DNA from: Betaproteobacteria bacterium
Lineage (GTDB): Bacteria > Pseudomonadota > Gammaproteobacteria > Burkholderiales > SG8-41
Assembly (NCBI GenBank): GCA_016868035.1
Contig: VGID01000005.1
Span: 26,017-90,016 of the forward strand
Direction of reading: 5' to 3'
Length of the DNA: 64,000 nt
Positions 7,045-54,748 of the stretch are shown here, in pieces. The first letter of the stretch is position 1. Every line of letters begins with the position of its first letter. The translations under genes and the position numbers were made by a program. The notes below the pieces were generated by a model that saw nothing but the letters and a program-made list of their open reading frames with translations, had not been told where the DNA came from and did not search any database.

Positions 7045-7962
7045 ATGCTGCCTGCCATGCTCACGGAAACCCTGCCCGGCACCGGAACGGCGCCCGGCTC
7101 GCGCGATTACGAACGCATCGCCCGGGCGATCGAGTTCCTGCGGCGTCACGCGCTCGAACAGCCCGATCTCGCCGCGGTGGCCCGCCGCGTGCATCTTTCC
7201 GAATTCCACCTGCAGCGCCTGTTCACCCGCTGGGCGGGCGTGAGCCCGAAGCGCTTTCTGCAGTTCCTTACCGTCGAGCACGCGAAGGCGCGGCTCGCCG
7301 CGGGCAGGAGCGTGCTCGGCCTCGCCGTGGATGTCGGGCTGTCCGGGCCCGGACGGCTGCACGATCTCTTCGTGGGGCTCGAGGCAATGACGCCGGGAGA
7401 ACTGCGCGCCGGCGGGCGCGGCGTGCAATTGCGGATCGGCGCCTGTAATACGCCGTTTGGGCGCTGCGCGATCGCCCTCACCGCTCGCGGCATCTGCGCG
7501 ATGCGTTTTGCAGACGAGGCGACGGACGGCGGCTTCGCGCGCTGGTTGCGTGCACGCTGGCCGCAGGCCGAGATGCGCGCGGAACCGGACGCAATCGCCG
7601 CGCTCGGAGATCGCATCTTCGGTCCGTTGGCTGCCGGCGCGCACGCGCCCCTGACGGTATTGGTGAAGGGCACGAATTTCCAGATACAGGTGTGGCGCGC
7701 GCTGCTCGAGGTGCCACGCGGACTCGTCACGACCTATCGCGATCTTGCCGCGCGCGCCGGGCGCCCCGGCGCTGCGCGCGCCGTCGGCTCCGCGGTCGCC
7801 GCGAATCCCGTCGCCTATCTCATCCCCTGTCATCGCGTGATCCGCGCGACCGGCATGCTGGGAGGCTACCGCTGGGGCGAGACCCGCAAGGCGGCGATCC
7901 TGGCTTGGGAGGCTGCGCACGCCATTGAATCCGTGCGGCAAACGGTAAACGGGGAACGGTGA
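7045..7962 (+). CDS. AraC-HTH-fused methylated-DNA--protein-cysteine methyltransferase (Ada-like, lacking the N-terminal zinc domain)
   Basis: HLSEFHLQRLFTRWAGVSPKRFLQFL (AraC HTH) plus the PCHRVIRATGMLGGYRWG alkyl-acceptor motif. The last 7 codons and the TGA stop are supplied by a heptamer array. Confidence 0.85.
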   Translation: MLPAMLTETLPGTGTAPGSRDYERIARAIEFLRRHALEQPDLAAVARRVHLSEFHLQRLFTRWAGVSPKRFLQFLTVEHAKARLAAGRSVLGLAVDVGLSGPGRLHDLFVGLEAMTPGELRAGGRGVQLRIGACNTPFGRCAIALTARGICAMRFADEATDGGFARWLRARWPQAEMRAEPDAIAALGDRIFGPLAAGAHAPLTVLVKGTNFQIQVWRALLEVPRGLVTTYRDLAARAGRPGAARAVGSAVAANPVAYLIPCHRVIRATGMLGGYRWGETRKAAILAWEAAHAIESVRQTVNGER

Positions 7963-7975
7963 ACGGTGAACGGTA
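7941..7975. repeat. heptamer array AACGGTG x5 (GTGAACG family)
   Basis: aacggta aacgggg aacggtg aacggtg aacggta; contains the ada-like stop codon (7960-7962). Confidence 0.9.
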
Positions 7976-8033
7976 GAATGCGAAAGTTCTGACCGCGCGA
8001 CCATGCGAAGAGGAGCCTCCGGCATTCTCCTTC

Positions 8034-8065
8034 AACCGTTTACCGATCACCGCTCACCGTTCACC
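8034..8065. repeat. inverted partner array CACCGTT x4.5
   Basis: aaccgtt taccgat caccgct caccgtt cacc, ending 1 nt before ATG 8066. An inner inverted pair agaatgc (7974-7980) / gcattct (8022-8028) extends the potential hairpin. Confidence 0.85.
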
Positions 8066-8494
8066 ATGAAAGACACGCTCAAGCCCGGCCTGACCCATCA
8101 GTTCAAGTTCAAAATACCGCGGACCAAAACCGTTCCGCACCTCTATCCCGAGTCCGAGATGTTCCAGCAGATGCCGGACGTGCTGGCGACCGGTTACCTG
8201 GTCGGGCTGATGGAGTGGGCGTGCATCGAGGCGTTGAAGCCCCATCTCGACTGGCCGCGCGAGCAGTCGCTCGGCACGCACGTCAACTTCTCGCACCTCG
8301 CTGCGACGCCCCCGGGGCTCACGGTCACGGTCGAGGTGCGGCTCGACAAGATGCAGGGGCGAAAGCTCGGCTTCTACCTCACGGCGCATGATGGCGTGGA
8401 CAAGATCGCAGAGGGCACGCACGAGCGCGTCGTCATCGACGCCGCGAGGTTCAACGCGAAGATCGGCGAGAAATCCCGCACCGCCGCGGGCTGA
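8066..8494 (+). CDS. hotdog-fold thioesterase (fluoroacetyl-CoA thioesterase-like)
   Basis: 142 aa from MKDTLKPGLTHQFKFKI; GYLVGLMEWACIEAL and the overall pattern fit the thioesterase superfamily. The upstream part of ORF 8003 is a translated repeat. Confidence 0.65.
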   Translation: MKDTLKPGLTHQFKFKIPRTKTVPHLYPESEMFQQMPDVLATGYLVGLMEWACIEALKPHLDWPREQSLGTHVNFSHLAATPPGLTVTVEVRLDKMQGRKLGFYLTAHDGVDKIAEGTHERVVIDAARFNAKIGEKSRTAAG

Positions 8495-8566
8495 GCGCTT
8501 CCGGGCCGAAGAATCAGCGGCTAGTCCGATCTTGAGTTCTGGATCGAGCGCGACGCCGGTGTCACC

Positions 8567-9160
8567 TCAGTCGAATTTTGCAGGCGATGAGAACGGCCGG
8601 GCGGCGTCCACCACGAACATCACGAGCTGATCCAAGTCGGTGGCGCCGGCACTGAACACTTCCATCGGCGTGTCGGCGGCATGTCCATTCATGGATCGAC
8701 CGGCGTCCGCATAGCTCACACCGTGCGGAGTCTTCTGGCCCAACCGCCCGGCCAGCACGTAAAAGGCTTCCGAGCCCGGATGAGTGTGCACCGGGGTCTT
8801 GGCCCCCCCCGGACCGCCGGCGCGGTTGATTCGCAGCAGGTACTCGGACGCGCTGATCGGCGGCACCGGCCCGACCTCCGCAACCTTGCTTCCACCGGGG
8901 GTCGAGCCGCCTTTCGGCCCAAGCGTGAAGAGCCACACCCTCCCCGCCGCTTCCGCGGCGAGCGAGGTCGGGCCCGCGGCGGCCTCGGCCTGCGCGAGCG
9001 TGGGGAAGTTCTCGAGCCGCCAGTACAGGACTCCGGACGGCAGCTGCTTCACCTTCTTCTCGGCCACCGGCTTGATGTCGAATTTCTGCGCCGCCGCCGG
9101 TTGCGACAAGCCGAGCGCGAGGGCGGTCATGGACAGGGCAATAGCTGTCTGCAGTTTCAT
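8567..9160 (-). CDS. exported cupin-domain protein
   Basis: Signal peptide MKLQTAIALSMTALALGLSQPAAAQ; cupin motif HTHPGSEAFYVLAGRL. Confidence 0.6.
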   Translation of the reverse strand: MKLQTAIALSMTALALGLSQPAAAQKFDIKPVAEKKVKQLPSGVLYWRLENFPTLAQAEAAAGPTSLAAEAAGRVWLFTLGPKGGSTPGGSKVAEVGPVPPISASEYLLRINRAGGPGGAKTPVHTHPGSEAFYVLAGRLGQKTPHGVSYADAGRSMNGHAADTPMEVFSAGATDLDQLVMFVVDAARPFSSPAKFD

Positions 9161-10650: not shown

Positions 10651-12459
10651 TCAATCGGGGCGGCTGCGGGGCGCCTCTTCCAGGGGCCAGAGACCGGCCT
10701 TGCGCAGTCCCTCGCGCAGGTTTTCGAGATCGCCTGCGTTCAGGAACTTGGTCCCGAACTCCCGGGGATCGAAGGTGGGATCGCTGCGGCGTATTTCCGC
10801 CGCCTCGCGCGCCGCGTCCGCCGCGCGGCCGTCCTGCGCATACGCGGCCGCCAGCACGACGCGGCTGAAGCTCGCGCCGGCGGTATCGCGCAGGTTGAGC
10901 TCGGCCTGCTCGATCGCGGCGCTGTAGCGTCGCTTCAGGTAGTAGGCGAGGCCGAGCGCAAAGCGGTCGATCGCGCCGAGATCGGGATCGATGCGCTGCG
11001 CCCGCTCCAGGGCCTCGACCGCCGCATCCGTCCTCCCCAGCCACATCAGTATGTTCCCGCGCGCGGCGAGGCTGCCGGCGTCGTTCGGATTGATCGCGAT
11101 GGCGCGCTCGATCTCCACCTCCGCCTCCTTGTAACGCTGGTGAAAGATATGGATGCGGCTGAGGATCACCCGGGCGCGCACCTCATCTTGATCGAGGCCG
11201 AGAGCCCTGAGCGCCAGCTCCTCGGCGCGGTTCATGAACGCGGTCGGCGACTCGGCCCATCCCATCGAGGTAGCGATGTAAAAAGTCTCCGCGAGGGCCG
11301 CGTAGGCTGCGGCGTAACTCGGATCGAGTTCGATCGCGCGCCTGAGGAGCCCTCGCGCCGCAGCGATGTCGGCGCGCGCTGGGCGCTGCAACGCAGGACG
11401 GGCGCGCAGCACGTAGTCGTAGGCTTCGAGATTTGTGGTCGGCTTGGCGAGCACCCGGCGCTGCTCGATCTGAGTCACCCGGATCGCAAGGGCGCTGACG
11501 ATCTCGGCAGTGATCCGGTCCTGGAGCGCGAACACGTCTGCCAGCGCTTCGTCGAAGCGCGCTGACCACAGCACCCGCCCCTGCCGCGTATCGGCAAGCT
11601 GCGCGCTTACCCGGACGCGTTCGCCGATTCGGCGCACGCTGCCCTCGACCAGATAGCCGACGGAAAGACCACGGCCGATTTCCCTCGGGCTCACCGGCTT
11701 GTTCTTGTAGGGGAGAACACCATTCCACGAAATCACCATCAGCGCGGAGAAGCGGCCGAGCGCGTTGATGAGGTCCTGCGTCAAACCGTCCGCAAAATAC
11801 TCGTGGCCGGGCTCGTCGCTGTGATCGACGAAGGCGAGCACGGCGATCGCGGGTTTCGCCCCGGGCTCGAGGCTCCGGGTCGCGGATCGGTCGCCGATGC
11901 CGATCCACAGAGCTACTGTGGCAAGCAGAATGCCAAGAGCGAGCGAGCCGATCAGTCCGATGCGCCGGCCGCTTGCCGTTGCAATGGACCCGAGCGGTGT
12001 GCGAGCGCCGGCGACGGGCTCAGGTGTAGCCACAGCTACAGTGGGAACCAGCCCAGCCTCGACCGGAGACTGGCCCGCCGTCGCGGCAGCCAACACGGGG
12101 GATTCGAATCGATACCCGCGGCGTGGAATCGTCGTGATGAGGCGCGACCCGTCGTCTCCAAGCGCCCGCCGCAGCTCGCCGATACTCTGCACCAAGGCAT
12201 CGTCCGTGACGACGAGATTCGGCCAGACCGCGGCAAAGAGCTCTTCCTTCGAGACCAGCCGTCCGGAATGCTCGACGAGGCAGCGCAGGACCGCGAACGT
12301 CTTAGGTCGCAGCGGAATTTCGTTCGCGTCGAGAAGGAGGGAGCCGCGTTCCAGATCGAGCACGTAGCGGTCGAATTGCAACCGCATTGCCCGCGTCTGG
12401 GTCAAAGGGTCTGCATCGCGATCGGTCATCGTCCCGACCTCGCTACAAATATCGGTCAA
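10651..12459 (-). CDS. membrane-anchored winged-helix (OmpR/CadC-type) transcriptional regulator with TPR repeats
   Basis: N-terminal trans_reg_C pattern (LRPKTFAVLRCLVEHSGRLVSKEELFAAVWP...VTDDALVQSIGELRRALGDD), one TM segment, and C-terminal TPR-like repeats. Confidence 0.75.
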   Translation of the reverse strand: MTDICSEVGTMTDRDADPLTQTRAMRLQFDRYVLDLERGSLLLDANEIPLRPKTFAVLRCLVEHSGRLVSKEELFAAVWPNLVVTDDALVQSIGELRRALGDDGSRLITTIPRRGYRFESPVLAAATAGQSPVEAGLVPTVAVATPEPVAGARTPLGSIATASGRRIGLIGSLALGILLATVALWIGIGDRSATRSLEPGAKPAIAVLAFVDHSDEPGHEYFADGLTQDLINALGRFSALMVISWNGVLPYKNKPVSPREIGRGLSVGYLVEGSVRRIGERVRVSAQLADTRQGRVLWSARFDEALADVFALQDRITAEIVSALAIRVTQIEQRRVLAKPTTNLEAYDYVLRARPALQRPARADIAAARGLLRRAIELDPSYAAAYAALAETFYIATSMGWAESPTAFMNRAEELALRALGLDQDEVRARVILSRIHIFHQRYKEAEVEIERAIAINPNDAGSLAARGNILMWLGRTDAAVEALERAQRIDPDLGAIDRFALGLAYYLKRRYSAAIEQAELNLRDTAGASFSRVVLAAAYAQDGRAADAAREAAEIRRSDPTFDPREFGTKFLNAGDLENLREGLRKAGLWPLEEAPRSRPD

Positions 12460-13752: not shown

Positions 13753-14318
13753 TAGATTCGGTGAACGGTGAATGGTGAACGGTGAATGGAACTTCGCCTG
13801 TTGCCGGTTCCACCGGGCATCAATGCTCGCCGCCACGAACGCAGCTTTGTCCGGAACGCCATCGTGTTCGCGGGACTGGACGATGGCAGTACGAACGTCG
13901 CGTAGCCCTGCTCCGAGAACCAGGGTTCCAGCGTCGCGGCAGTCTTCCCGTTGAAGCAAACACGCCGCAATTCCGTCGCGACGCGTGTTACGCGCCGAAA
14001 GCGGTTTTGCGTCGCGTTGCGGATTGCACTATCGAGGCTACCCTCGCGCTCGCAGGTTCCGATCACATCCCACAATCCGATGCGCCGCGCGAGCAGCGCT
14101 TCGAGCCTCGCTTCGTACGGCATTTCGTGCAGCGGCGCGTCGATGACGCGCCCGACGAGGCGCCAGAACTGGTTTTGCGCGTGACCGTAGTACTGGGCCT
14201 TCGCAAGCGACGCTTCACTCGGAAAGCTGCCCAGGATGAGCGTCCGGACTCTCCGGTCGATCACCGGCGGGAAACCGCGCAGCGCGGCACTGCGGATGGC
14301 GCTCCGCCTACCGCCCAC
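13752..14318 (-). CDS. DNA-deoxyinosine (hypoxanthine) glycosylase, UDG family 6-like
   Basis: ILGSFPSEASLAKAQYYGHAQNQFWRL, GLWDVIGTCEREGSLDSAI and LPSSSPAN. The C-terminal approx 12 aa (IHRSPFTVHRI) are encoded by a heptamer array. Confidence 0.75.
   Translation of the reverse strand: MGGRRSAIRSAALRGFPPVIDRRVRTLILGSFPSEASLAKAQYYGHAQNQFWRLVGRVIDAPLHEMPYEARLEALLARRIGLWDVIGTCEREGSLDSAIRNATQNRFRRVTRVATELRRVCFNGKTAATLEPWFSEQGYATFVLPSSSPANTMAFRTKLRSWRRALMPGGTGNRRSSIHRSPFTVHRI
13759..13790. repeat. heptamer array CGGTGAA x4.5 (GTGAACG family)
   Basis: cggtgaa cggtgaa tggtgaa cggtgaa tgg; lies inside the 3' end of the glycosylase CDS. Confidence 0.9.
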
Positions 14319-15182: not shown

Positions 15183-15245
15183 CCGTGAACGGTGATCGGT
15201 AAGCGGTAAGCGGTAAGCGGTAAGCGGTAAGCGGTAAGCGGCAGA
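15183..15245. repeat. heptamer array CGGTAAG x9 (6 perfect units)
   Basis: ccgtgaa cggtgat then cggtaag x6 then cggcaga; begins 10 nt upstream of the MoxR start codon. Confidence 0.95.
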
Positions 15246-22962: not shown

Positions 22963-22979
22963 CGGGGCGGTGAAGATCC

Positions 22980-23056
22980 GGTTCAAGGTTCAAGGTTCAA
23001 GGTTCAAGGTTCAAGGTTCAAGGTTCAAGGTTCAAGGTTCAAGGTTCAAGGTTTGA
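22980..23056. repeat. heptamer array GGTTCAA x10 perfect plus 1 degenerate unit
   Basis: Read directly; starts 18 nt after the glcD stop. Confidence 0.95.
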
Positions 23057-23060
23057 CCCG

Positions 23061-23085
23061 GAACTTTGAACTTTAAACTTGGAAC
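23061..23085. repeat. short inverted, degenerate partner (GAACTTT x3.5) of the GGTTCAA array
   Basis: gaacttt gaacttt aaacttg gaac; one mismatch per unit to the reverse complement (GAACCTT). Confidence 0.7.
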
Positions 23086-23110
23086 AGGGCCGCGCTCGTC
23101 ACATTCATCC

Positions 23111-24169: not shown

Positions 24170-24203
24170 CGAACGGTGAACGGTAAACGGTGAACGGTAA
24201 TCA
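24169..24203. repeat. heptamer array GTGAACG x5
   Basis: gcgaacg gtgaacg gtaaacg gtgaacg gtaatca; begins at the last base of the glcE stop codon. Confidence 0.9.
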
Positions 24204-24237
24204 GAGAGGCGGCATCATGGCTCGACTTTGTGCGTCC

Positions 24238-24265
24238 CGTTCACTGTTCACTGTTCGCTGTTCAC
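24238..24265. repeat. inverted partner array (C/T)GTTCAC x4
   Basis: cgttcac tgttcac tgttcgc tgttcac; ends 11 nt before the glcF ATG. Confidence 0.9.
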
Positions 24266-24276: not shown

Positions 24277-25515
24277 ATGCAGACGAACCTCGCACCGTTC
24301 ATCAAGGACACACCCGAGGGCCGCGAAGCCGACGCGGTCCTGCGCAACTGCGTGCACTGCGGTTTATGCACCGCGACCTGCCCGACCTACCAGCTGCTGG
24401 GCGACGAGCTCGACGGACCGCGCGGGCGCATCTACCTGATGAAGCAGGTGCTCGAGGGCGCGCGGCCGACCGCGAAGACGCAGCTGCATCTCGACCGCTG
24501 CCTCACCTGCCGCGCGTGCGAGACGACCTGCCCCTCGGGCGTGCACTACAGCCGGCTGCTCGACATCGGGCGCAAGCTCGTGGACGAGCGGGTCGCGCGC
24601 GGCGCCGTTGCAAGCATCGAGCGCCGGATACTGCGTGCAGTGGTCCCGAAACCCGGATTGTTCGGTCCCCTGCTCAGGCTGGGACGGCTTGCGCGCCCGC
24701 TGCTGCCCGCCGCGTTGAGACGCAAGGTGCCGGGGAATGTCGCGCCCGCAAAACCGTGGCCGGAACGCGAGCACCCCCGCAAGATGCTGGTGCTCGAGGG
24801 CTGCGCGCAGCAGAGCCTCTCGCCCGCGACCAATGCCGCCGCCGCGCGGGTGCTCGACCGGATCAGAATCACGCTCGTGCGCGCGCCCGAGGCCGGCTGC
24901 TGCGGCGCAGTGTCGTTCCACCTCACCGCGCAGGAAGAGGCGCTCGATTACATGCGGCGCAACGTGGATGCCTGGTGGCCGCGCCTCGAGCGCGGCGCGG
25001 AGGCGGTCGTGACGACGGCGAGCGGCTGCGGCGTCATGGTCAGGGACTACGGACATGCGCTCGCCCGCGACCCGGCCTACGCCGCGAAGGCAAAGCGGAT
25101 CTCCGATCTCGCGAAGGACATCGGCGAGGTGATCGCCGCCGAAAAGAACAAGCTGCTCACCGCTCACCGCTTACCGCTCACCGCTCACCGCGTAGCGTTC
25201 CACGCGCCCTGCACCCTGCAGCACGGGACGAAGCAGAAAGGCTCGATGGAGGCGCTTCTCGTCGAACTCGGGTTCGAGCTCACGCCGGTGCCCGACGCGC
25301 ACCTGTGCTGCGGCTCGGCAGGCACGTATTCCATACTCCAGCCGGAGCTCTCGCGCCAGCTGCTTGGCAACAAGATCGCCGCGCTGACGAGCGGCAGTCC
25401 GCGGACAATCCTCACCGCGAACATCGGTTGCCAGGCGCACCTGCAGAGCGCGACCGCGCTGCCCGTGCGGCACTGGATCGAAGCGCTCGACGAACGCATC
25501 TCGCAATCGCGCTAG
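24277..25515 (+). CDS. glcF: glycolate oxidase iron-sulfur subunit
   Basis: CVHCGLCTATCPTYQ and CLTCRACETTCPSGV ferredoxin-type clusters, plus C-terminal CCG motifs (HLCCGSAGTY). Confidence 0.9.
   Translation: MQTNLAPFIKDTPEGREADAVLRNCVHCGLCTATCPTYQLLGDELDGPRGRIYLMKQVLEGARPTAKTQLHLDRCLTCRACETTCPSGVHYSRLLDIGRKLVDERVARGAVASIERRILRAVVPKPGLFGPLLRLGRLARPLLPAALRRKVPGNVAPAKPWPEREHPRKMLVLEGCAQQSLSPATNAAAARVLDRIRITLVRAPEAGCCGAVSFHLTAQEEALDYMRRNVDAWWPRLERGAEAVVTTASGCGVMVRDYGHALARDPAYAAKAKRISDLAKDIGEVIAAEKNKLLTAHRLPLTAHRVAFHAPCTLQHGTKQKGSMEALLVELGFELTPVPDAHLCCGSAGTYSILQPELSRQLLGNKIAALTSGSPRTILTANIGCQAHLQSATALPVRHWIEALDERISQSR
25154..25188. repeat. heptamer array GCTCACC x5 inside the glcF coding sequence
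   Basis: gctcacc gctcacc gcttacc gctcacc gctcacc, translated in frame as LTAHRLPLTAHR. It is the reverse complement of the GGTGAGC/GGTAAGC unit seen at 15183-15245. Confidence 0.9.
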
Positions 25516-28987: not shown

Positions 28988-29010
28988 ATCGTGAATGGTG
29001 AATTGTGAAT
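28983..29010. repeat. heptamer array (C/G/T)GTGAAT x4
   Basis: cgtgaat cgtgaat ggtgaat tgtgaat. Confidence 0.9.
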
Positions 29011-29030
29011 CGGAGAACTCGCGCGGTGAC

Positions 29031-29118: not shown

Positions 29119-29119
29119 A

Positions 29120-30034: not shown

Positions 30035-30058
30035 ACTTCAGCCGCGGAGATCACAGAG

Positions 30059-33863: not shown

Positions 33864-33890
33864 CACAAAGGACACTAAGGACACAAAGGA
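33864..33890. repeat. nonamer array CACAAAGGA x3
   Basis: cacaaagga cactaagga cacaaagga, starting 2 nt after the synthetase stop. Confidence 0.85.
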
Positions 33891-33913
33891 AAATCCCAAA
33901 ATGATTGTCGAAG

Positions 33914-33940
33914 ACCTTCGTGCCCTTTGTGTCCCTCGTG
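33914..33940. repeat. inverted nonamer partner (TCCTTTGTG-like x3)
   Basis: accttcgtg ccctttgtg tccctcgtg. Confidence 0.8.
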
Positions 33941-33967
33941 TTTCAGCTTTTTTTTGGAAAGCGCTTC

Positions 33968-35739: not shown

Positions 35740-35744
35740 GGCAT

Positions 35745-35800
35745 GATTCGTGATGAGTGACGACTGACGACCGACGGCTGGCGAGTGACGGCTGAAGAAT
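35745..35800. repeat. heptamer array GACGNNT x8 (GTGACGA/CTGACGA family)
   Basis: gattcgt gatgagt gacgact gacgacc gacggct ggcgagt gacggct gaagaat; fills the Bug-DUF35 intergenic region up to ATG 35799. Confidence 0.8.
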
Positions 35801-37383: not shown

Positions 37384-37418
37384 GGTTACAAGTTCCGAGT
37401 TCAAGGTTCAAGGTTGAG
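37384..37418. repeat. heptamer array (A/G)GTTCAA-family x5
   Basis: ggttaca agttccg agttcaa ggttcaa ggttgag. Confidence 0.8.
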
Positions 37419-37443
37419 GATACTTGAGCACCCGGGGTGCCGG

Positions 37444-37471
37444 CTTTGAACTCGGAAACTGGAACTTCGAA
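37444..37471. repeat. inverted partner array CTTTGAA-family x4
   Basis: ctttgaa ctcggaa actggaa cttcgaa. Confidence 0.75.
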
Positions 37472-38332: not shown

Positions 38333-38713
38333 ATGACTCCGAAGAAACCCGGTCCCGACCACGCACGCCTCGACCGCGTCGTGGCCGACGCGCGGCGCGC
38401 GCGGGAGATCCGCGAGAAAGGCTATCGCGAGCTGGCGCTCAAGATGTATCCGTGGGTCTGCGGGCGCTGCGCGCGGGAGTTCACGCGCGCGAACGTGCAG
38501 CTGCTCGAAGTCCATCACCGCGACCACAACCACGACAACAACCCGCCCGACGGCAGCAACTGGGAGCTGCTGTGCACCTACTGCCACGAAAACGAGCACC
38601 GGCGCTTTCTCGACAGCACCGGACCCGGCGCGGAGGGGGAAAAGCAGTCGCAGGCGACTTTCCGGCCGTTCGAAGCGCTCGACGCGCTCTTGAAGAAGAA
38701 GCGTGATCCGTGA
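38333..38713 (+). CDS. yajD: YajD-family HNH nuclease
   Basis: YPWVCGRCAREF...LEVHHRDHNHDNNPPDGSNWELLCTYCHENEH. The stop TGA (38711-38713) lies in a heptamer array. Confidence 0.8.
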   Translation: MTPKKPGPDHARLDRVVADARRAREIREKGYRELALKMYPWVCGRCAREFTRANVQLLEVHHRDHNHDNNPPDGSNWELLCTYCHENEHRRFLDSTGPGAEGEKQSQATFRPFEALDALLKKKRDP

Positions 38714-38736
38714 ATCGTGAGTCGTGAGTCGTGAGT
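38702..38736. repeat. heptamer array CGTGAGT/CGTGAAT x5
   Basis: cgtgatc cgtgaat cgtgagt cgtgagt cgtgagt. Confidence 0.9.
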
Positions 38737-38752
38737 TGTTGGACGCTTCCCC

Positions 38753-38808
38753 GACTCACTCCTCAATCCTCAATCCTCAATCCTCGATCCTCAATCCTCA
38801 CTCCTCGA
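38753..38808. repeat. heptamer array TCCTCAA x8
   Basis: gactcac tcctcaa x3 tcctcga tcctcaa tcctcac tcctcga; lies between convergent yajD and aminotransferase genes. Confidence 0.9.
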
Positions 38809-38828
38809 CAACACCCACGGGCGCGCGC

Positions 38829-40244
38829 CTATTCGGCCATTGCCGCTGATTTCGCTACGGAAATCCGGGGCAACCGCTCCTCCGCCTTCAGGTCGCGCAG
38901 CGATTGCCGCCAGGCAGCGATTGTCGCATCGACATCCGCCTGCGTGTGAGCGGCGGAGACGATCCCGCCGCGGAATCCCTTGAGATCCACGCCGTGCACC
39001 AGCATGGCGAGCCGCAGCTTCGCGAGCATGCGCTCATCCTTGCCCTTGAGCGAGTCCGGGGTCAGGGTCGATGGGTCGAAGGTCATGGGGCGTAGGTCCT
39101 CGCCCGCCGGGTTCGAATGCAGGTGAAAGAAGGAATGCTCTCCATAAATTGCCCACGGAATGCCTTCTTCGTCGAGGACCTCGTTCATCCTGCGCCGCAG
39201 TGCCGACGCCACGGACGAAGCGCGCGCGCAGGCGTCCGAGCTACGGATGATGTCCAGCGTTGCGATGCCGGCTGCGGCGCTCAGCGGGTGGGCATTGTGC
39301 GTGCCCTGGTGGTTGATACGCTCGCGCTTCGCGGCGGCCGACGCGTCGAAATCGATCCATTCGAGTATGTCCCGGCGGCCGCCGACGACGCCGCCCGGCA
39401 TGCCACCGGCGACGACCTTGGCCATGGTGGTGAGATCGGGCGTTACTCCGAGCAGAGCCTGCGCGCCGCCCGGATGGACGCGGAAGCCCGTCACAACCTC
39501 GTCGAAGATCAACAACGCGCCGTAGCGCTGCGTGAGCTCGCGCAGCGCCTTGAGCACCGAAGGCGGGGTCGGGATCATGCCCGAGCTGCTGCCGATCGGC
39601 TCGACGATGAGGGCAGCCACGTCCTTGCCGCCTGCGAGAACCCGCTCGACTGCCGCGACGTCGTTCGGCGCCAGCAGCGCCGCGTTCGCGGCGACTTCCG
39701 GCAGCACGCCGGCGCTCGCCGAACCGTCCAGGTGCTCGGTTACGCCGAACGAAACCTGGTCGTGCCAGCCGTGAAAATGCGTCTGGAACCGCACGATGCG
39801 CGGGCGGCCGGTCGTGGCGCGCGCGAGCCGGATCGCGAGCATCGTCGCTTCGGTTCCGGAGGAAGTGAAGCGCACGCACTCCGCAGAAGGCACCATGTCC
39901 TTGATGCGGCGGGCCCACTCGATCTCGAGCTCGTTCGCGGCCGCCAGATGCATCCCCTTGCCGGCCTGTGCTCGAACCGCCTCCAAGACCGCCGGATGCT
40001 GGTGCCCGAGAAGCAACGCGCCGTGGCCGCCGTAGTAGTCGATGTACTCGTTGCCATCCACGTCCCATTTGCGGGAACCCGCACCGCGATCCCCGTATAT
40101 GCCGTAGGGCCAGGTCCGGCGCGAGTCGTGCACAATCCCGCTGGGCAGAAGCTCCAGCGCTTGCTCGTACAGTTTCGCCGCACGGGGCGTGCGGGCGCGG
40201 TAGGCCGCGAGGATTTTCGATTCGGATGCGTTACTCTGTGCCAT
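38829..40244 (-). CDS. class III PLP-dependent aminotransferase (glutamate-1-semialdehyde aminomutase-like)
   Basis: 471 aa from MAQSNASESK; GGHGALLLGHQHP, FTSSGTEATM and LIFDEVVTGFR. Confidence 0.8.
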   Translation of the reverse strand: MAQSNASESKILAAYRARTPRAAKLYEQALELLPSGIVHDSRRTWPYGIYGDRGAGSRKWDVDGNEYIDYYGGHGALLLGHQHPAVLEAVRAQAGKGMHLAAANELEIEWARRIKDMVPSAECVRFTSSGTEATMLAIRLARATTGRPRIVRFQTHFHGWHDQVSFGVTEHLDGSASAGVLPEVAANAALLAPNDVAAVERVLAGGKDVAALIVEPIGSSSGMIPTPPSVLKALRELTQRYGALLIFDEVVTGFRVHPGGAQALLGVTPDLTTMAKVVAGGMPGGVVGGRRDILEWIDFDASAAAKRERINHQGTHNAHPLSAAAGIATLDIIRSSDACARASSVASALRRRMNEVLDEEGIPWAIYGEHSFFHLHSNPAGEDLRPMTFDPSTLTPDSLKGKDERMLAKLRLAMLVHGVDLKGFRGGIVSAAHTQADVDATIAAWRQSLRDLKAEERLPRISVAKSAAMAE

Positions 40245-41140: not shown

Positions 41141-41989
41141 TTAGTTGTGCGTCTCCTCGGTCGCGTCCCTGCACCAGCGGTAGAACGCGTCGTAGAGCGG
41201 CATCGCCGCCTCGAGCTGCGCGAGGTCGTCGCGATACATCCGGGAAAATCCGAGCGATGCCGCGAGCAGGCCGGCGCACTGGGAACTGAGATCGAGCCGC
41301 CCGGTGTCCGCTCCCCGGATGATCCGGGCCAGCCGCGAGAGGACGTCGGTATCGAGCCCCAGCTCCTCGAGCATGACGTCGAAGGTGCACTTCTCCCGGC
41401 GATCGCCCCAGAACGCGTTATCCACGTCGAAGGGGGTCGCGCTGAACTTCTTCGCGACGCCCGCCACTTCCGGGGGCGCCACGTACAGGAATACGGCCCC
41501 GGGGTCGACGAATCTCCGGATCAGCCACGGACAGGCAATGCGGACGATCTTGGGCCGTGCCCGCGTGACCCAGACGGTGCGTCCGGCTTCATTGAACGGA
41601 GGCAGTCGTTCGGTGCGCAAGAGCGGTTGGCCGCCCTCGCGCCAGGCCCCGTGCCCACCTTCCAGCGTCTGGGCGCCGATTCCCGCGTGCCGCAGCCAGG
41701 CGGCGGTGCCCTGGCTGAGGCTCGCGCCGTGCTGGCAGCTGACGATCACGGTTTGGCCGGTGTACTCGCTCGCCCAGCGCGCGACGTCGCCGGCGTCGCG
41801 CCGGCGCGCGGTGGGAATCAGGCGGGGATCGGCCCCGAAATCCTCCTCGGTACGCACGTCGACGACGGCGGGTGCGCCGGGAAGACCGATCAGGCGGGAC
41901 AGCTGCGGGACGGTAATCTGCGACGGCGACGGCACGGCATCCACCTCAAGCGGCAGGGCTTGGACGCGATGCTCCGGCTGTCGCCTCAC
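41141..41989 (-). CDS. rhodanese-domain / ChrB C-terminal-domain fusion protein
   Basis: The N-terminal half is rhodanese-like (VVDVRTEEDF...VIVSCQHGASLSQG). The C-terminal half matches the chromate-resistance ChrB_C pattern (WVTRARPKIVRIACPWLIRRFVDP). Confidence 0.6.
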   Translation of the reverse strand: MRRQPEHRVQALPLEVDAVPSPSQITVPQLSRLIGLPGAPAVVDVRTEEDFGADPRLIPTARRRDAGDVARWASEYTGQTVIVSCQHGASLSQGTAAWLRHAGIGAQTLEGGHGAWREGGQPLLRTERLPPFNEAGRTVWVTRARPKIVRIACPWLIRRFVDPGAVFLYVAPPEVAGVAKKFSATPFDVDNAFWGDRREKCTFDVMLEELGLDTDVLSRLARIIRGADTGRLDLSSQCAGLLAASLGFSRMYRDDLAQLEAAMPLYDAFYRWCRDATEETHN

Positions 41990-42143
41990 GGGGTGATCGC
42001 GATCAACCCCGTGCGGAAATTTGACAGGAACCTCAATTCATTGTCAAGGCGGCGCTTTTGATTTGACGTCACATCCAGTAAACCGCCGCGGGCGCACACG
42101 CGAATCCGCGCGTCCCGTCTTGGCGGCGTTCTGAATTTTTAAC

Positions 42144-42199
42144 CCTCAGTCCTCGATCCTCAGTCCTCAATCCTCAGTCCTCAATCCTCGTTCCTCGCC
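42144..42199. repeat. heptamer array CCTCAGT/CCTCAAT x8
   Basis: cctcagt cctcgat cctcagt cctcaat cctcagt cctcaat cctcgtt cctcgcc; contains the stop codon (42167-42169) and last codons of the minus-strand ORF. Confidence 0.9.
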
Positions 42200-43832: not shown

Positions 43833-43942
43833 CCGGGGCTGGCGCCAGTGTCCAGCGACGGGCGGCTCCGTGACTGAGTGATCAGGCGATCAAGTGGTTC
43901 AGCCGGCCCTCTATACTTAATCACGCAATCACCGGGTTTCGC

Positions 43943-43977
43943 CTTCAATCCTCAGTCCTCAGTCCTCAATCCTGAAT
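43943..43977. repeat. heptamer array CCTCAGT/CCTCAAT x5
   Basis: cttcaat cctcagt cctcagt cctcaat cctgaat; ends 10 nt before ATG 43987. Confidence 0.9.
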
Positions 43978-44664: not shown

Positions 44665-44674
44665 CCAAGAACGC

Positions 44675-44709
44675 GTGACGCAGTGACGGCTGACGACTGA
44701 CGAGCACGC
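44675..44709. repeat. heptamer array NNTGACG x5
   Basis: gtgacgc agtgacg gctgacg actgacg agcacgc. Confidence 0.8.
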
Positions 44710-44766
44710 CCTCGTGAATCGCCAAGCAATGCGCGCCTCTCGTCTCTCGCCCTTCGTCTCTCGAAT

Positions 44767-45480
44767 ATGGTGCTGACAGACATCAAGGCGCTGACCTTCG
44801 ACACCTTCGGCACGGTGGTGGACTGGCGCACGAGCATCATCGAGGATTTCCGCGCATTCGGAAAAAGGAAGAGCCTCAAGGTGGACTGGGAAGCCTTCGT
44901 GGACGAATGGAAGGAATGCTACCGTCCCGGCATGGACCAGGTGCGCAGCGGGAAATGGCCGTGGACCACGGTGGACCGGATCTACCGCAAGAAGCTCGAC
45001 GAGATGCTGCCGCGTTACGCCCTCGACGGCCTGAGCGAAGAGGAGAAAACGCGCCTCAACCGCGCCTGGCACCGGCTCGCACCGTGGCCCGACGCGGTCG
45101 CGGGCCTCGCGCGGCTGAAGAAGAAATACATCATCTCGCCGCTTTCCAACGGAGACGTGGCCTGCCTCACCAACATGGCGAAGCACGGGGGCCTGCCGTG
45201 GGACGTCATCCTGTGCGCGGAGATCTTCAAGCACTACAAGCCCGACCCCGAGGTCTATCGAGGAGCGATCCGGCTTCTCGGACTGGAGCCACATCAGGTG
45301 ATGATGGTCGCCGCACACAACTACGACCTCAAGAACGCGCGCTCGCACGGGATGCGCACCGCGTTCGTCGCGCGCCCGAGCGAGTACGGCCCGAACCAGA
45401 AAACGAATCTCCAGGCCGAGGAGGACTGGGACGTCGTTGCCAGGGATTTCGGAGAGCTCGCGAGCGCGCTCGGCGCCTGA
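44767..45480 (+). CDS. haloacid dehalogenase type II (HAD superfamily)
   Basis: ALTFDTFGTVVDW nucleophile motif, LSNGD, and KHYKPDPEVY. Confidence 0.8.
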   Translation: MVLTDIKALTFDTFGTVVDWRTSIIEDFRAFGKRKSLKVDWEAFVDEWKECYRPGMDQVRSGKWPWTTVDRIYRKKLDEMLPRYALDGLSEEEKTRLNRAWHRLAPWPDAVAGLARLKKKYIISPLSNGDVACLTNMAKHGGLPWDVILCAEIFKHYKPDPEVYRGAIRLLGLEPHQVMMVAAHNYDLKNARSHGMRTAFVARPSEYGPNQKTNLQAEEDWDVVARDFGELASALGA

Positions 45481-47027: not shown

Positions 47028-47999
47028 ATGAAGCACTTCCAGTACCTTCTGGCCGGCATCATCGCCTGGGGTTGCGCCGCAGCGGCGCTCGCGCAACAGC
47101 CCTATCCGAACAAGCCCATACGGTTGATCGTCGGATTTGCGCCGGGCGGGAACACGGACACCGTCGGGCGCATCGTCGGGCAGAAGCTCGGCGAGCGCCT
47201 CGGCACCGCGGTGGTGGTGGACAACCGCGGCGGCGCGGGCGGCACGATCGGAACCGAGCTCGCGGCGAATGCCGCCCCGGACGGTTACACCCTGACGATG
47301 GGAACGACGACCACGCACGCCATTGCTGTCGCCGCGTATTCCAAGCTCCGCTACGATCCCGTCAAGGACTTCTCGCCTATCGCTCTGGTCGCGAGCGCGC
47401 CCTATCTCCTCGTCGTCCATCCAAGCCTGCCGCCCCGCAGCCTGAAGGAATTCGTCGCGTACGCGAAGTCCCAGTCCGGCAAGTTGAACTACGGCTCGGC
47501 CGGCCAGGCGACCACCACTCACCTCGTGATGGCGACCTTCACCGGCCGCGCGGGCCTTGATATGACGCACATCCCGTTCAAGGGCAACGGCCCGGCGACG
47601 ACTGCCGTGGTGGCGGGAGAGGTGCAGGTGCTCTTCGGGGCCGTGCCGCCGCTCATCGGGCACGTCGGCGCGGGCCGGGTGCGGGCGCTTGCGATCAGCT
47701 CCGGGAAACGCTCGCCGACGCTGCCCGACGTGCCGACCGTCGCGGAATCCGGCTATCCGGGTTTCGACATGGCGTTGTGGCTGGGTTTCTTCGCGCCGAA
47801 CGGCACGCCGTCCGCGGTGGTGAAGCGCCTCGAATCGTCGCTCGTCGAAATCATCAAATCGCCCGAAACCAAGGACCTGCTGACACGGCAGGGCGTCGAG
47901 CCCTACAGTATGGGTTCGGCCGATCTGGCAAAACTGGTGAAGACGGAGATCACGACCTATCGGTCGGTGTTCAAGTCGGCCGGCATCAAGGTCGAGTGA
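47028..47999 (+). CDS. Bug-family substrate-binding protein
   Basis: Signal peptide, then YPNKPIRLIVGFAPGGNTDTVGR; 323 aa. Confidence 0.9.
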   Translation: MKHFQYLLAGIIAWGCAAAALAQQPYPNKPIRLIVGFAPGGNTDTVGRIVGQKLGERLGTAVVVDNRGGAGGTIGTELAANAAPDGYTLTMGTTTTHAIAVAAYSKLRYDPVKDFSPIALVASAPYLLVVHPSLPPRSLKEFVAYAKSQSGKLNYGSAGQATTTHLVMATFTGRAGLDMTHIPFKGNGPATTAVVAGEVQVLFGAVPPLIGHVGAGRVRALAISSGKRSPTLPDVPTVAESGYPGFDMALWLGFFAPNGTPSAVVKRLESSLVEIIKSPETKDLLTRQGVEPYSMGSADLAKLVKTEITTYRSVFKSAGIKVE

Positions 48000-49761: not shown

Positions 49762-50736
49762 TCATTCGGCGCGAATGTTCGCGAGCTGGACCACCTTGGT
49801 CCACTGCTCGCGCTCGTTCCTGAGGTGCGCCGCGAATTCCCGCGGCGAGCTCGCCACGCCCTCGGTGCCGTCGAGCGCCAGCCGCTTCACGACCTCCAGC
49901 TGTTTCACCGCCGCGGCAATCTCCTGGTACAGGCGCTCGATCACGCCCTGCGGAGTGCCACGCGGGGCAAGCATGCCGTGCCACTGGGTGACGATGTATC
50001 CCGGCACGCCCGACTCGATCATCGTCGGCAGATCGGGCGCGATTTTCGCGCGCGTGGCGCTTGCAATGGCGATCGGCTTCAACTTCCCGACCCGCACCTG
50101 GCTGTACACCGAGCCCATGCTGAGAAAGCTCATGTGTATGCGCCCCGCCAACATGTCGGGAAGCGCGGCGCCGACTCCCTTGTACGGGACGTGGACGAGC
50201 TCGATTCCCGTGGAAATCCGGAACAGCTCCGTCGCCAGATGCGCCAGCGACGCGTTGCCCGTCGAGGAATAGTTGAGCTTGGTGGGCACGGACTTTGCGT
50301 ACGCGATGAGCTCCTTCACCGTCGTCGCGGGAAGCCCTGGATACACGGTGAGGATGTACGGCGCGGCGGCGGCCTGGGTAACCGGGGCAAAGTCCCGGTA
50401 GAGGTCATAGCGGGTCTTGCTGACGATGCCGTACACGACCAGGCTCGCGCTGAGGAACATCACGGTATAGCCGTCCGGGGCCGCCTGCGCCGCGAGCTCC
50501 GCGGCAATGCTCCCGCTCGCTCCTGCCCGGTTGTCCACGACCACGGTCTGTCCCACGGCCTCGCTCATGGGACCCGCGACCTGGCGCGCGACGAAATCGA
50601 GCCCCGCGCCCGAGGCGACGATCAATCTGATCGCCTTGGTCGGGTATGTCGCCGGTTGCGCGCCAGCGTGCGGCGCGAGAAGAACGAGCACCGCGGTTAG
50701 CGCCGCGATGACCCCGGCCGGCGTTCTTTCTTTCAT
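49762..50736 (-). CDS. Bug-family substrate-binding protein
   Basis: Signal peptide, then YPTKAIRLIVASGAG...; about 324 aa from MKERTPAG. Confidence 0.9.
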   Translation of the reverse strand: MKERTPAGVIAALTAVLVLLAPHAGAQPATYPTKAIRLIVASGAGLDFVARQVAGPMSEAVGQTVVVDNRAGASGSIAAELAAQAAPDGYTVMFLSASLVVYGIVSKTRYDLYRDFAPVTQAAAAPYILTVYPGLPATTVKELIAYAKSVPTKLNYSSTGNASLAHLATELFRISTGIELVHVPYKGVGAALPDMLAGRIHMSFLSMGSVYSQVRVGKLKPIAIASATRAKIAPDLPTMIESGVPGYIVTQWHGMLAPRGTPQGVIERLYQEIAAAVKQLEVVKRLALDGTEGVASSPREFAAHLRNEREQWTKVVQLANIRAE

Positions 50737-53145: not shown

Positions 53146-53206
53146 CGATCGTATTTCGAGGATTCCTGCCGCATCAAACCGTTGATCACTGGCGCTGCCG
53201 ATTGGT

Positions 53207-54178
53207 TCACTCGAGCTTGAGGCCTGTCTCCTGCGCCACCCTCTTCCACTTCGCCAGGTCTTCGCGGATGAAGCTCGCGAGCTCCTCGCTCGAACTCGGG
53301 CGTAGCTCGACGCCGAGCGCCCGGAAGCGCTCGATCACGGCCGGCATGCTCAAGGCCTTGACCAGCGCCGCGTTGAGGCGCCGCACGATGTCCGGCGGCG
53401 TCGCCGCCGGCGCGAGCACACCGTTTACCGTGCTCGCATCGAAGCCAGGCAATCCGGACTCGGCAAGAGTCGGCAGATCGGGCAGCAACGCGGCCCGGCG
53501 CGCCGTGGTGACGGCGACGGCGCGCAGCCGGTTCGACTTGATGTGCTCGATCGACGAGGAAATCTGGTCAACGCGCGCGTCCACGTGCCCGCCCAGCAGG
53601 TCGACCAGCGCGGGACCCGCTCCCTTGTACGGAACGATCAGCAGCTTCACTCCGGCGGTGATCGCGAACAGTTCCGCGATCAGGTGGCTCGTCGTGCCCT
53701 GGCCGCCGGTCGCCATCCGTATGTCGGCCGGCCGTGCCTTGGCAAGAGCGATGAACTGCTTCGCGGTCCTGGCGGGCACGGTAGGGTGCACCACGATCAC
53801 CAGCGGCAGCTCGCCGACGCGCCCGACCGGCACGAAGTCCTTGAGGATGTCGTAGCGCAGCTTCGCATAGGCCGCCGGCGCGTTGGTCATCACGCTGCTC
53901 GAAGCCATCATCAGCGTGTACCCGTCGGGCGCGGACTTTGCCACCGCTTCGGCGCCGATCTGCCCGCCCGCGCCGGCGCGGTTCTCCACGATCACCTGCT
54001 GGCCCAGGGCCTCGCCCAGCTCCGGGGCGATGCCGCGCGCCGCGATGTCATTGGTGCCGCCCGGCGCGAACGGCACGACGAGACGCACCGGCTTCGACGG
54101 GAACCCCTGTGCGAGCGCGATCGAAGCGAGCAGGCCCAGCCAGATGAAAACCCCCACCTGTCCCAGTGCGCGCATCAT
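53207..54178 (-). CDS. Bug-family substrate-binding protein
   Basis: Signal peptide, then FPSKPVRLVVPFAPGGTNDIAAR. Confidence 0.9.
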   Translation of the reverse strand: MMRALGQVGVFIWLGLLASIALAQGFPSKPVRLVVPFAPGGTNDIAARGIAPELGEALGQQVIVENRAGAGGQIGAEAVAKSAPDGYTLMMASSSVMTNAPAAYAKLRYDILKDFVPVGRVGELPLVIVVHPTVPARTAKQFIALAKARPADIRMATGGQGTTSHLIAELFAITAGVKLLIVPYKGAGPALVDLLGGHVDARVDQISSSIEHIKSNRLRAVAVTTARRAALLPDLPTLAESGLPGFDASTVNGVLAPAATPPDIVRRLNAALVKALSMPAVIERFRALGVELRPSSSEELASFIREDLAKWKRVAQETGLKLE

Positions 54179-54292
54179 GAAAATCCTCCTGCCAACAAGT
54201 TTGTCAGAGCCGATGGCCGGCGCCGCCAATACACGATCAATTCACCGAAATGCTTGTTGTTCTGGCGGGACGCGAACTGACCCGATTTTTCC

Positions 54293-54637
54293 CTATCCTT
54301 CCCATGTCTTGGGGTCCACCGGGTGCCGGTCGTATCTGCCCACGCCCTGGACGAGCACGAAGCGGCACGGGCGGTCGCCGTGGGGCGTGACCTGATGGGG
54401 TCGCTTGGTCCGGACGACATGGCTCTGGCCTACGGCAAGCAAGACGCGCTCGGGCGGGTCGAGCATCTCGATCTGGACCGTGCCTTCGATGCAGTAGGTC
54501 GTGTCGGTGATGGTCGTGTGGTAGTGCCAAGGAATGACCTCGCCCGGCGCGAGCGTGCGCTCCTGCACCAAAACGTCGGGACTCCTGGCAATCCAGTTGA
54601 TCTTGCCGGCACGGACGTAATTGAGTTCGACGGACAT
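54293..54637 (-). CDS. cupin-domain protein
   Basis: IPWHYHTTITDTTYCIEGTV...PHQVTP. The start is ambiguous (54637 to 54664). Confidence 0.65.
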   Translation of the reverse strand: MSVELNYVRAGKINWIARSPDVLVQERTLAPGEVIPWHYHTTITDTTYCIEGTVQIEMLDPPERVLLAVGQSHVVRTKRPHQVTPHGDRPCRFVLVQGVGRYDRHPVDPKTWEG

Positions 54638-54720
54638 AGGCATCTCCATTCCCGGAGTGTGCATTTTGCTCCCAAAAAGGCGCCGCCAAGCGGCCAGCCG
54701 ACATGCTCGCGCACCGTTCC

Positions 54721-54748
54721 TCGTGGGTCGTGATTCGTGATTCGTAGT
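54721..54748. repeat. heptamer array TCGTGAT x4
   Basis: tcgtggg tcgtgat tcgtgat tcgtagt; lies just downstream of the queG stop. Confidence 0.8.

Follow-up and report, generated by a model that had tools for sequence, protein, structure and literature searches.

A 64-kb stretch of contig VGID01000005.1 from a Betaproteobacteria bacterium, an uncultured freshwater member of the SG8_41-like Burkholderiales (assembly GCA_016868035.1, 65% G+C; hereafter the window, to the whole of which all window counts refer) carries about 25 tandem arrays, built almost entirely from seven-nucleotide units and distributed over 16 loci, mostly at co-directional gene junctions. These heptanucleotide arrays are real and lie far beyond chance, and they gain and lose whole units between independent assemblies of the same population. 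We read them as simple sequence repeats (SSRs) that would be made by replication slippage and filtered by selection, with inverted pairs of arrays forming transcribed hairpins that would act on the translation of genes poor in Shine-Dalgarno (SD) sequences. We give this reading a probability of roughly 0.55.

Heptanucleotide arrays in the window

Tandem Repeats Finder (TRF), run on the window at a score of at least 30, returned arrays of period 7, 14 or 21 at 7936, 8042, 13759, 15190, 22980, 23061, 24171, 24239, 25155, 28983, 29027, 29074, 35751, 37399, 38698, 38755, 42144, 43945, 44684, 44734 and 54728, together with 9-mer arrays at 30159 and 33864. Strong arrays numbered nine at period 7 in an autocorrelation scan of the window, which gave zero at periods 5, 6 and 8–12, so that period 7 is the sole over-represented short period. 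Of the pattern (GTGANNN)2GTGA (GTGANNNGTGANNNGTGA) there are 8 occurrences, where dinucleotide shuffles would give 0.01. Overall density is about one locus per 3–4 kb; in the count that is compared below with other betaproteobacterial loci it is about 14 arrays per 100 kb. The arrays have the properties of the long SSRs of Mrazek 2007, namely head-to-tail units of 1–11 nt in runs longer than chance would give.

An initial annotation of this DNA had proposed a coherent class of gene-junction elements, a view that our results support. TRF arrays lie at or within a few bases of nearly all the positions it listed, and the common core that it saw across units is real: roughly half of the arrays in the window and in its relatives have a KTGA core, where our own rough estimate would predict about 5%. 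Some details required revision. The copy number per array, put at 4–11, was measured as 2.4–10.6 with a median of about 4.4; a weak locus at 48019 lacks TRF support; and a 9-mer array assigned to 30059 is in fact at 30159, with only a degenerate inverted partner at 30059.

Placement and strand polarity at gene junctions

Gene calls and Pfam labels were carried over onto window coordinates from near-identical contigs, which include the 108.5-kb JGI contig Ga0194121_10000186 and contigs of several other assemblies. With 88% of the window coding, array midpoints fall in the non-coding 12% in 21 of 25 cases (binomial p ~4e-16), and 22 of the 25 arrays lie within 40 nt of a gene end. This is the same intergenic bias, close to the ends of open reading frames (ORFs), that was described by Rehm 2015. 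The earlier statement that nearly all arrays sit 0–40 nt from start or stop codons is correct on these counts, but such proximity is nearly automatic because the junctions are only 100–150 nt long. Arrays are present at 13 of the 47 junctions between co-directional genes, at one of the nine convergent junctions and at none of the eight divergent ones; the deficit at divergent junctions is not significant (p 0.18).

The arrays are kept out of most coding sequence. Coding sequence had been described as free of them apart from a few terminal codons and one insertion in glcF; several arrays are in fact not purely intergenic. In the Ada-like, UDG, MaoC, HNH and SSF-like genes an array supplies the final 5–31 nt and the stop codon; in the MaoC gene this amounts to the last residue and the stop, and in the other four to a C-terminal tail and the stop.

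The arrays also have a strand polarity. Of the arrays that follow a stop codon, 10 of 14 have more G than C on the sense strand, compared with 1 of 11 of those that precede a start codon (Fisher p 0.004). Downstream-of-stop arrays are therefore G-rich and bear stop codons (10/14) while upstream-of-start arrays are C-rich, the same polarity as that given by Rehm 2015, in which the G-rich strand is the coding strand downstream of genes and the non-coding strand upstream. Complementarity to the anti-SD sequence in the 3' tail of 16S rRNA has a median of -7.1 kcal/mol in downstream arrays versus -2.3 kcal/mol in upstream arrays (p 0.0009), and the downstream arrays match the anti-SD as well as genuine SDs do. 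Where an array lies within 28 nt of a gene's start, the SD is weak or missing (median -2.95 kcal/mol, as against -6.55 kcal/mol; p 0.0016). Seeding of arrays from stop codons was considered as the origin of this pattern. It accounts for only a part of it, even though several arrays have the stop codon as their first unit, because GTGA far outnumbers CTGA and because start-upstream arrays carry TGA on the antisense strand.

The arrays are listed below with their strand, unit and copy number; units of minus-strand arrays are given in plus-strand reading where so marked.

7936–7975, plus strand: GTGAACG/GTAAACG, 5.7 copies; 5' arm of an inverted pair, encoding the final 27 nt and TGA stop of the Ada-like gene (7045–7962).
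8034–8066, minus strand: CGTTCAC/CGCTCAC/CGATCAC (plus-strand reading), 3.4–4.5 copies; 3' arm, reaching the ATG (8066) of the FlK thioesterase gene, which has no SD.
13759–13789, plus strand: GTGAACG/GTGAATG, 4 copies; unpaired, in the closing 31 nt of UDG, a minus-strand gene with the tail SIHRSPFTVHRI followed by the stop, and 6 nt upstream of the VWA_CoxE start.
15183–15241, plus strand: GTGAACG GTGATCG, then a perfect run of 6.4 copies of GTAAGCG; 9 nt upstream of the start of the AAA_5 gene (minus strand).
22980–23053, plus strand: GGTTCAA, 10.6 perfect copies; 17 nt past the glcD stop.
23061–23085, plus strand: GAACTTT, 3.6 copies; pairs in inverted orientation with the GGTTCAA array and precedes the glcE start (23111) by 25 nt.
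24171–24200, plus strand: GTGAACG/GTAAACG, 4 copies; 5' arm, beginning 1 nt past the glcE stop.
24239–24265, minus strand: TGTTCAC/TGTTCGC (plus-strand reading), 3.9 copies; 3' arm, ending 11 nt short of the ATG of glcF, a gene without an SD (predicted stem ~26 bp, z = -6.2).
25155–25191, minus strand: GCTCACC (plus-strand reading), 5.3 copies; in frame within glcF, encoding LTAHRLPLTAHR.
28983–29012, plus strand: GTGAATC/GTGAATG/GTGAATT, 4.3 copies; 5' arm, overlapping the MaoC stop.
29027–29104, minus strand: two degenerate inverted arrays upstream of adh_short (29120), ATTTACG/ATTGACG at 29027–29060 (4.9 copies) and CGATTCC/CGATTTC at 29074–29104 (4.4 copies).
30159–30183, plus strand: 9-mer CTCTGTGCA, 2.8 copies; degenerate inverted CACAGAG partner near 30051–30100.
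33864–33890, plus strand: 9-mer CACAAAGGA, 3 copies; 5' arm, beginning 1 nt past the stop at 33862.
33914–33940, plus strand: inverted 9-mer arm CCTTCGTGC CCTTTGTGT CCCTCGTG, 27 nt upstream of the ECH_1 start (33968).
35737–35795, plus strand: NNTGANN of the GTGACGA/CTGACGA type, 8 copies; unpaired, opening with the TctC stop codon and closing 3 nt before the next ATG.
37384–37471, plus strand: GTTCAAG, 2.4–5 copies at 37384–37420, with an inverted partner (TTTGAAC...) at 37444–37471; downstream of the thiolase gene.
38698–38736, plus strand: GTGATCC GTGAATC GTGAGTC x3; supplies the final 16 nt and stop of the HNH gene.
38755–38808, minus strand: CCTCAAT (plus-strand reading), 7.4 copies, or (ATTGAGG)n on the sense strand; 20 nt past the stop of a minus-strand aminotransferase gene, at a convergent junction.
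42144–42197, minus strand: CCTCAAT/CCTCAGT, 6.6 copies; supplies the final 31 nt and stop of the minus-strand SSF-like gene.
43945–43977, minus strand: CCTCAGT/CCTCAAT, 4.7 copies; 9 nt upstream of the NnrU ATG.
44675–44763, plus strand: GTGACGN/CTGACGA, 2.9–4 copies at 44675–44703, and partly complementary CTCTCGT, 3.9 copies at 44734–44763, closing 3 nt before the ATG of the HAD gene, which has no SD.
54721–54748, plus strand: GTGATTC, 2.6–4 copies; lies 8 nt beyond the stop of the QueG-like gene (minus strand) and is an exception to the polarity rule.

The array within glcF had been called an in-frame insertion. It is in frame, but it occupies a hypervariable linker of normal length with no net gain. 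At the 9-mer array 30159–30183 a small predicted stem (30174–30192) overlaps the 3' end, and the unit pair of this locus is also found at another junction in the relative L072. Part of the spacer between the MaoC and adh_short genes is locally duplicated (29044–29073 / 29088–29117; period about 44 nt, 93% identity), and the copied segment has an SD-like AGAGG and start-proximal sequence. The three arrays of the GTGANTC sub-family (28983–29012, 38698–38736 and 54721–54748) contain the motif GANTC, the site of CcrM-type methylation. A gene for an N6_N4 DNA methyltransferase is located in the window at 25704–26939. The match is probably a coincidence, since the motif is confined to that sub-family and the other unit families lack it.

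Inverted pairs and predicted hairpins

At 9 of the 16 loci the arrays form inverted pairs, that is, an array, a unique spacer and a reverse-complement array (7936/8034, 22980/23061, 24171/24239, 28983/29027-29104, 30059/30159, 33864/33914, 37384/37444, 38698/38755 and 44675/44734), and frequent convergent inverted pairs are likewise a feature of the repeats of Rehm 2015. Seven of the nine folded regions gave hairpin z-scores of -2.4 to -6.2 against shuffles, and two, 38690–38830 (z -1.6) and 44665–44770 (z +1.5), folded no better than shuffles. Stems of about 17–27 paired bases, counted from dot-bracket strings, are predicted at 7944–8065, 22963–23098, 24171–24265, 28975–29121, 33870–33943 and 37384–37471. 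The 5' arm starts at or within the upstream stop codon and the 3' arm ends 0–27 nt before the downstream start. In these predicted folds a heptamer array and a complementary arm form a long hairpin beside a start codon, which is the arrangement of the Haemophilus influenzae hmw genes discussed below.

The spacers between arms share nothing among loci in an all-against-all BLAST. Among Rfam families the sole match in the window is chrB-a, which lies outside the arrays. A pattern scan for intrinsic terminators found 19 sites versus 14.4 expected; none of them is an array hairpin, one is the small stem at 30174–30192 noted above, and the array stems have no T tails.

Copy-number change between assemblies

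Independent assemblies of the same population were available from at least 8 samples (JGI, ENA and Logan), and they differ from the window by 0–1 substitutions over 1–21 kb. The sole indels in unique full-length alignments are whole 7-nt units (+7, +14 and -7 nt), located at 22980 and 15197. The (GGTTCAA)n array at 22980 has three alleles of 10.6, 11.6 and 12.6 copies, and the (CGGTAAG)n array at 15197 occurs in lengths of 6.4 and 5.4 copies; two separate assemblies (L202 and L294) have the shorter allele. No perfect arrays are longer than these two. The imperfect arrays show no variation, in up to 10 assemblies; the array at 43945–43977, for example, does not vary in 7 assemblies, and three contigs end within it.

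Gain and loss of whole 7-nt units in the arrays far outpace the build-up of point mutations. This is classic microsatellite behavior, and whole-unit gain and loss is what slippage produces in long SSRs. It also bears out the earlier description of the arrays as actively diversifying, and constitutes direct evidence from natural populations that they mutate faster than point substitutions accumulate. Five contigs (L284, L285, L286, L291 and L292), from several samples, end at 42160 and 43937–43956, inside CCTCAAT/CCTCAGT arrays. Since contigs end within arrays whose units recur at 38755, 42144 and 43945, the arrays fragment metagenome assemblies. In practical terms, arrays with shared units interrupt the contigs of short-read metagenomes and can displace the C-termini and start sites that gene prediction gives.

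Arrays in relatives and other phyla

The closest relatives by GlcD are uncultured Betaproteobacteria/Burkholderiales metagenome-assembled genomes, L001 with 84% and SG8_41 (L002/L270) with 82% identity. In SG8_41 each of the three glcDEF positions bears arrays of matching unit type. Its glcD-glcE junction has (GTTCAAG)13 together with an inverted TTGAAC array, glcE is followed by an inverted GTGAC/GGTCAC pair, and the orthologous glcF linker contains (GGTCACC)n, as it does in L204. These matches imply that the arrays predate the split of these species, and such comparisons show arrays retained at orthologous junctions in different species. Here the glcD-glcE spacer measures 148 nt, versus 3–20 nt in the array-free relatives L003 and L004, and by this measure arrays expand junctions that are otherwise tight. 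In L001 the unit at the glcD-glcE junction is GTGATGG, which indicates that unit turnover also occurs. The L001 array, (GTGATGG)3.5 at 11496–11520, supplies the stops that follow glcD and apparently the ATG of glcE as well; array sequence in this genome apparently doubles as translation signals. A metagenome scan with GlcE reached a top identity of at most 69%, so relatives of intermediate divergence were not found.

Some relatives have a gene for a 165-aa protein (MANNFLEQLVAEWY...ELDVVAF...) between glcE and glcF (L001 12727–13221, L002 12934–13428 and L003 12667–13161). Heptad arrays flank it in L001 and L002, and the window has no homologue of it. The conserved product possibly resembles a PD-(D/E)XK-type nuclease.

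Over 1.9 Mb of other betaproteobacterial loci the density of arrays is about 1 per 100 kb, mostly in the nearest relatives. Among the matches listed, arrays of (GTGANNN)5 or longer are found in many phyla. In this same set of matches from other phyla, 11% of arrays lie inside long ORFs though ORFs make up 75% of the sequence, 22% have an inverted partner, and the polarity trend is the same (p 0.046).

Origin and possible role of the arrays

We propose that replication slippage generates the arrays and that selection filters the location and orientation of those that survive. A G-rich, SD-like, stop-bearing strand would be tolerated on the coding strand after stop codons, and a C-rich strand before start codons. 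The arrays would be transcribed within operon mRNAs. Where an array has an inverted partner, the transcript may fold into a hairpin that spans the upstream stop codon to the next start codon and masks the downstream start region. Because the downstream genes mostly lack an SD, their translation could depend on opening of the stem, either by an upstream ribosome that melts it (translational coupling) or through cutting by RNase III, the latter modelled on the (ATCTTTC)n hairpin in the 5' untranslated region (UTR) of H. influenzae hmw (PMC12721329). Slippage in copy number would then alter stem length and could tune expression. If the arrays act at all, it is probably in this manner, as transcribed hairpins masking SD-less start regions.

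Several observations weigh against this proposal. The weak SDs beside arrays are partly a matter of construction, because the array sits in the SD position. The copy-number differences were read from short-read metagenome assemblies and not from reads. The seven unpaired loci form no hairpin. G-U pairing on the sense strand is not consistently favored, with five junctions folding better as sense and three as antisense; an early impression that wobble pairs mark the transcribed strand was dropped after folding of both strands gave this mixed result, and selection at the RNA level is accordingly not demonstrated. The inverted arms could equally well have arisen at the DNA level or neutrally.

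The main rival, which we regard as possible though doubtful, is that the arrays are neutral or selfish microsatellites without function, their inverted partners made by intrastrand template switching (quasipalindrome correction) and their placement and polarity left by purifying selection against disruption of coding sequence, promoters and start sites. As microsatellites should, they change by whole-unit indels only and just the longest perfect arrays vary; units differ between loci, spacers are unique, the sense strand has no G-U bias, and seven loci are unpaired. The pattern recurs in many phyla among the matches listed (11% in ORFs, 22% with an inverted partner), and the Xanthomonas repeats have no assigned role despite RNA-seq (PMC4692102). 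Persistence fits this rival less well. The same unit type is found at three orthologous positions in a species whose GlcD is only 82% identical, a long time for unconstrained hypermutable DNA, and a 7-nt array survives in frame within glcF in several lineages. The KTGA core is also present in about half of the arrays when our rough estimate predicts about 5%, and the SD-less genes downstream need some means of translation initiation.

The hairpin proposal can be widened into a claim that we consider unlikely: that the arrays belong to a cross-phylum class of cis-elements defined by geometry and not by sequence. An SD-like, stop-rich G arm after a stop codon and a C arm before an SD-less start would couple the translation of neighboring genes, a ribosome or RNase III would open the hairpin, and slippage would serve as a heritable, reversible rheostat. 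If this were true, a 35-year-old question about short tandemly repeated repetitive (STRR) sequences would become testable here and in Xanthomonas, and ordinary metabolic operons would have a genome-wide expression rheostat.

A third explanation, which we think very unlikely, is that the arrays are binding sites of a genome-wide network for a heptad-reading protein, either on DNA (an omega-like ribbon-helix-helix (RHH) protein) or on RNA (a cold-shock-domain or S1-type protein, one per heptamer). MacGregor (PMC4679880) suggested cold-shock proteins, one per heptamer, and a Nostoc preprint speculated on a heptamer-binding factor. The strict 7-nt period, the conserved GTGA/TCAC core with three variable positions and the coexistence of direct and inverted arrangements do resemble operator arrays. 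However, the TTGAACC, TTGAGGA and 9-mer families lack the GTGA core, TCAC flanks are not A/T as in omega heptads, arrays are present at 0 of 8 divergent, promoter-bearing junctions (p 0.18), and units are uniform within a locus and different between loci, as slippage predicts. The window also has no RHH or other candidate gene. Pfam searches of its hypothetical genes gave no RHH, RNA-binding or REP-associated tyrosine transposase (RAYT; REP, repetitive extragenic palindromic) candidate, in agreement with the initial annotation that no annotated gene explains the arrays.

Mobile elements with heptamer-built terminal inverted repeats inserted at junctions, of the MITE (miniature inverted-repeat transposable element) or REP/bacterial interspersed mosaic element (BIME) type, were rejected, as was an artefact: the array-spacer-inverted-array layout resembles MITEs and REP doublets (REPINs) and the 165-aa gene stands between flanking arrays in L001 and L002, but no sequence is common to the spacers (a MITE-like element is thereby ruled out), arm units are locus-specific, no target-site duplication or conserved termini were seen, the window has no RAYT or transposase gene, and orthologous arrays differ by slippage and not by presence or absence of a defined element.

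Other features of the window

Six paralogous genes lie within 26 kb (34768–35739, 47028–47999, 49762–50736, 53207–54178, 58605–59576 and 59637–60608), with mutual identities of 35–43% in shared tblastn matches. Four of the six have a TctC (PF03401) Pfam call; those at 58605–59576 and 59637–60608 are our own gene calls, placed in the group by paralogy only. Such expansions of 'Bug' (TctC) genes are typical of Burkholderiales.

A perfect 113-bp tandem repeat (2460–2847; 3.4 copies, 100% identity) occupies most of a 510-nt convergent gap between the TPP_enzyme_C gene and a gene for a 98-aa hypothetical protein. It is the same in the JGI contig, and an ENA contig stops within it, making its copy number uncertain in short-read assemblies.

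A chrB-a cis-regulatory RNA (Rfam RF03078, 59.6 bits; 41933–42015, minus strand) lies directly 5' of the ChrB_C/rhodanese gene (41141–41935) and shares one intergenic gap with the CCTCAAT array at 42144.

Comparison with known repeat systems

The omega protein, of the RHH type, binds arrays of 7-bp WATCACW heptads in direct or inverted orientation. PMC4498918 describes a ParB-like omega protein of Firmicutes together with its parS site. Set against omega operators, about half of the arrays agree in period and in the TCAC core; A/T flanks are missing, and the window lacks an RHH gene.

Enterobacterial REP sequences consist of one conserved imperfect palindrome of 20–40 nt that is spread by RAYT, and their hairpins are thought to stabilize upstream mRNA. 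The arrays are like REP/BIME sequences (REPINs) in being intergenic, often within operons, hairpin-forming and arranged in inverted pairs. Unlike them, the palindromes of the window are built locally from tandem 7-mers, are locus-specific and are changed by slippage. With locus-specific units, unique spacers and no Y1 transposase among the window's called genes, the arrays do not belong to the REP/BIME class, nor do they belong to MITEs, as spacers and cores show no similarity between loci.

At H. influenzae hmw1A/hmw2A, (ATCTTTC)n forms a 5'-UTR hairpin that is cleaved by RNase III, with a proven effect on expression, and copy-number change requires both transcription and the hairpin (PMC12721329). 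The window resembles this system in having heptanucleotide SSRs with a complementary arm, for which a long RNA hairpin is predicted immediately upstream of a gene, and in copy numbers that vary in populations. Unlike hmw, a single phase-variable virulence locus with at least 11 repeats, the present arrays occupy dozens of housekeeping junctions, have mostly 3–6 repeats and are known from sequence only.

To our knowledge, no general function of heptanucleotide repeats has been established since STRRs were described in 1990. The initial annotation was aware of no equivalent described for GC-rich proteobacteria; heptameric SSRs that share this placement, strand polarity and inverted pairing have in fact been published for GC-rich Xanthomonas, cyanobacteria and Beggiatoaceae. 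In the account of Mrazek 2007 given in PMC4679880, heptanucleotides are the commonest class of long SSRs, and four Burkholderia genomes and Xanthomonas campestris are among the top ten genomes for SSRs with 5–11-nt units.

Cyanobacterial STRR hairpins between hupS and hupL have been proposed to act in transcript stability or translational coupling (PMC2670836). Like STRRs, the arrays are made of 7-bp tandem units, are intergenic, including within operons, and can form intercistronic hairpins. Their host is a betaproteobacterium, unlike the heterocystous cyanobacteria that harbor STRRs, and the window contains no tandem CCCCAGT, TTGGTCA or CAACAGT, the canonical STRR units. The TAACTGA repeats of Beggiatoaceae adjoin start codons in intergenic regions where a canonical SD is rare (MacGregor 2015, PMC4679880). 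These share with our arrays the stop-containing heptamers beside start codons, the SD-poor context and an association with genes of all functions. In Beggiatoaceae, however, there is one forward unit upstream of starts, with inverted copies at 1/170, whereas the window has many units, the C-rich strand upstream of starts and frequent inverted pairs; tandem TAACTGA is absent from the window.

The Xanthomonas genome is about 5 Mb in size. Its 186 GGGAATC arrays are ~90% intergenic with a mean distance of 28 nt to the nearest ORF, lie mostly between co-directional ORFs and rarely between divergent ones, have their G-rich strand as coding strand downstream of ORFs and as non-coding strand upstream, and form 70–75 convergent inverted pairs (Rehm 2015, PMC4692102). 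Positions are kept between species while length and sequence vary; most repeats are transcribed, and RNA-seq analysis gave no function (PMC4692102). The arrays of the window agree with these and with the Nostoc GGGGA(C/T)T repeats in tandem 7-nt units, about four per array, gene-end placement, polarity and inverted pairs, and with Xanthomonas also in a GC-rich proteobacterial host and in positions conserved across species. They differ from Xanthomonas in the coexistence of many KTGANNN units (GTGAACG, GTGAATC, TTGAACC, TTGAGGA and GTGACGA) and in a higher density, about one locus per 3–4 kb. Tandem GGGAATC or GGGGATT does not occur in the window and arrays have at most one GGG run each, so that in the absence of G3 tracts a G-quadruplex is impossible.

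The arrays are therefore of the same kind as the STRR, GGGAATC and TAACTGA elements, and belong to none of these families by sequence. Placement, polarity and inverted pairing of heptamer SSRs were already known; what is new is a very dense example without G-quadruplex capacity. That arrays unable to form G-quadruplexes nonetheless keep the Xanthomonas placement, polarity, length of about four units and inverted pairing argues against the G-quadruplex as a general explanation, and the pattern points toward translation signals or hairpins.

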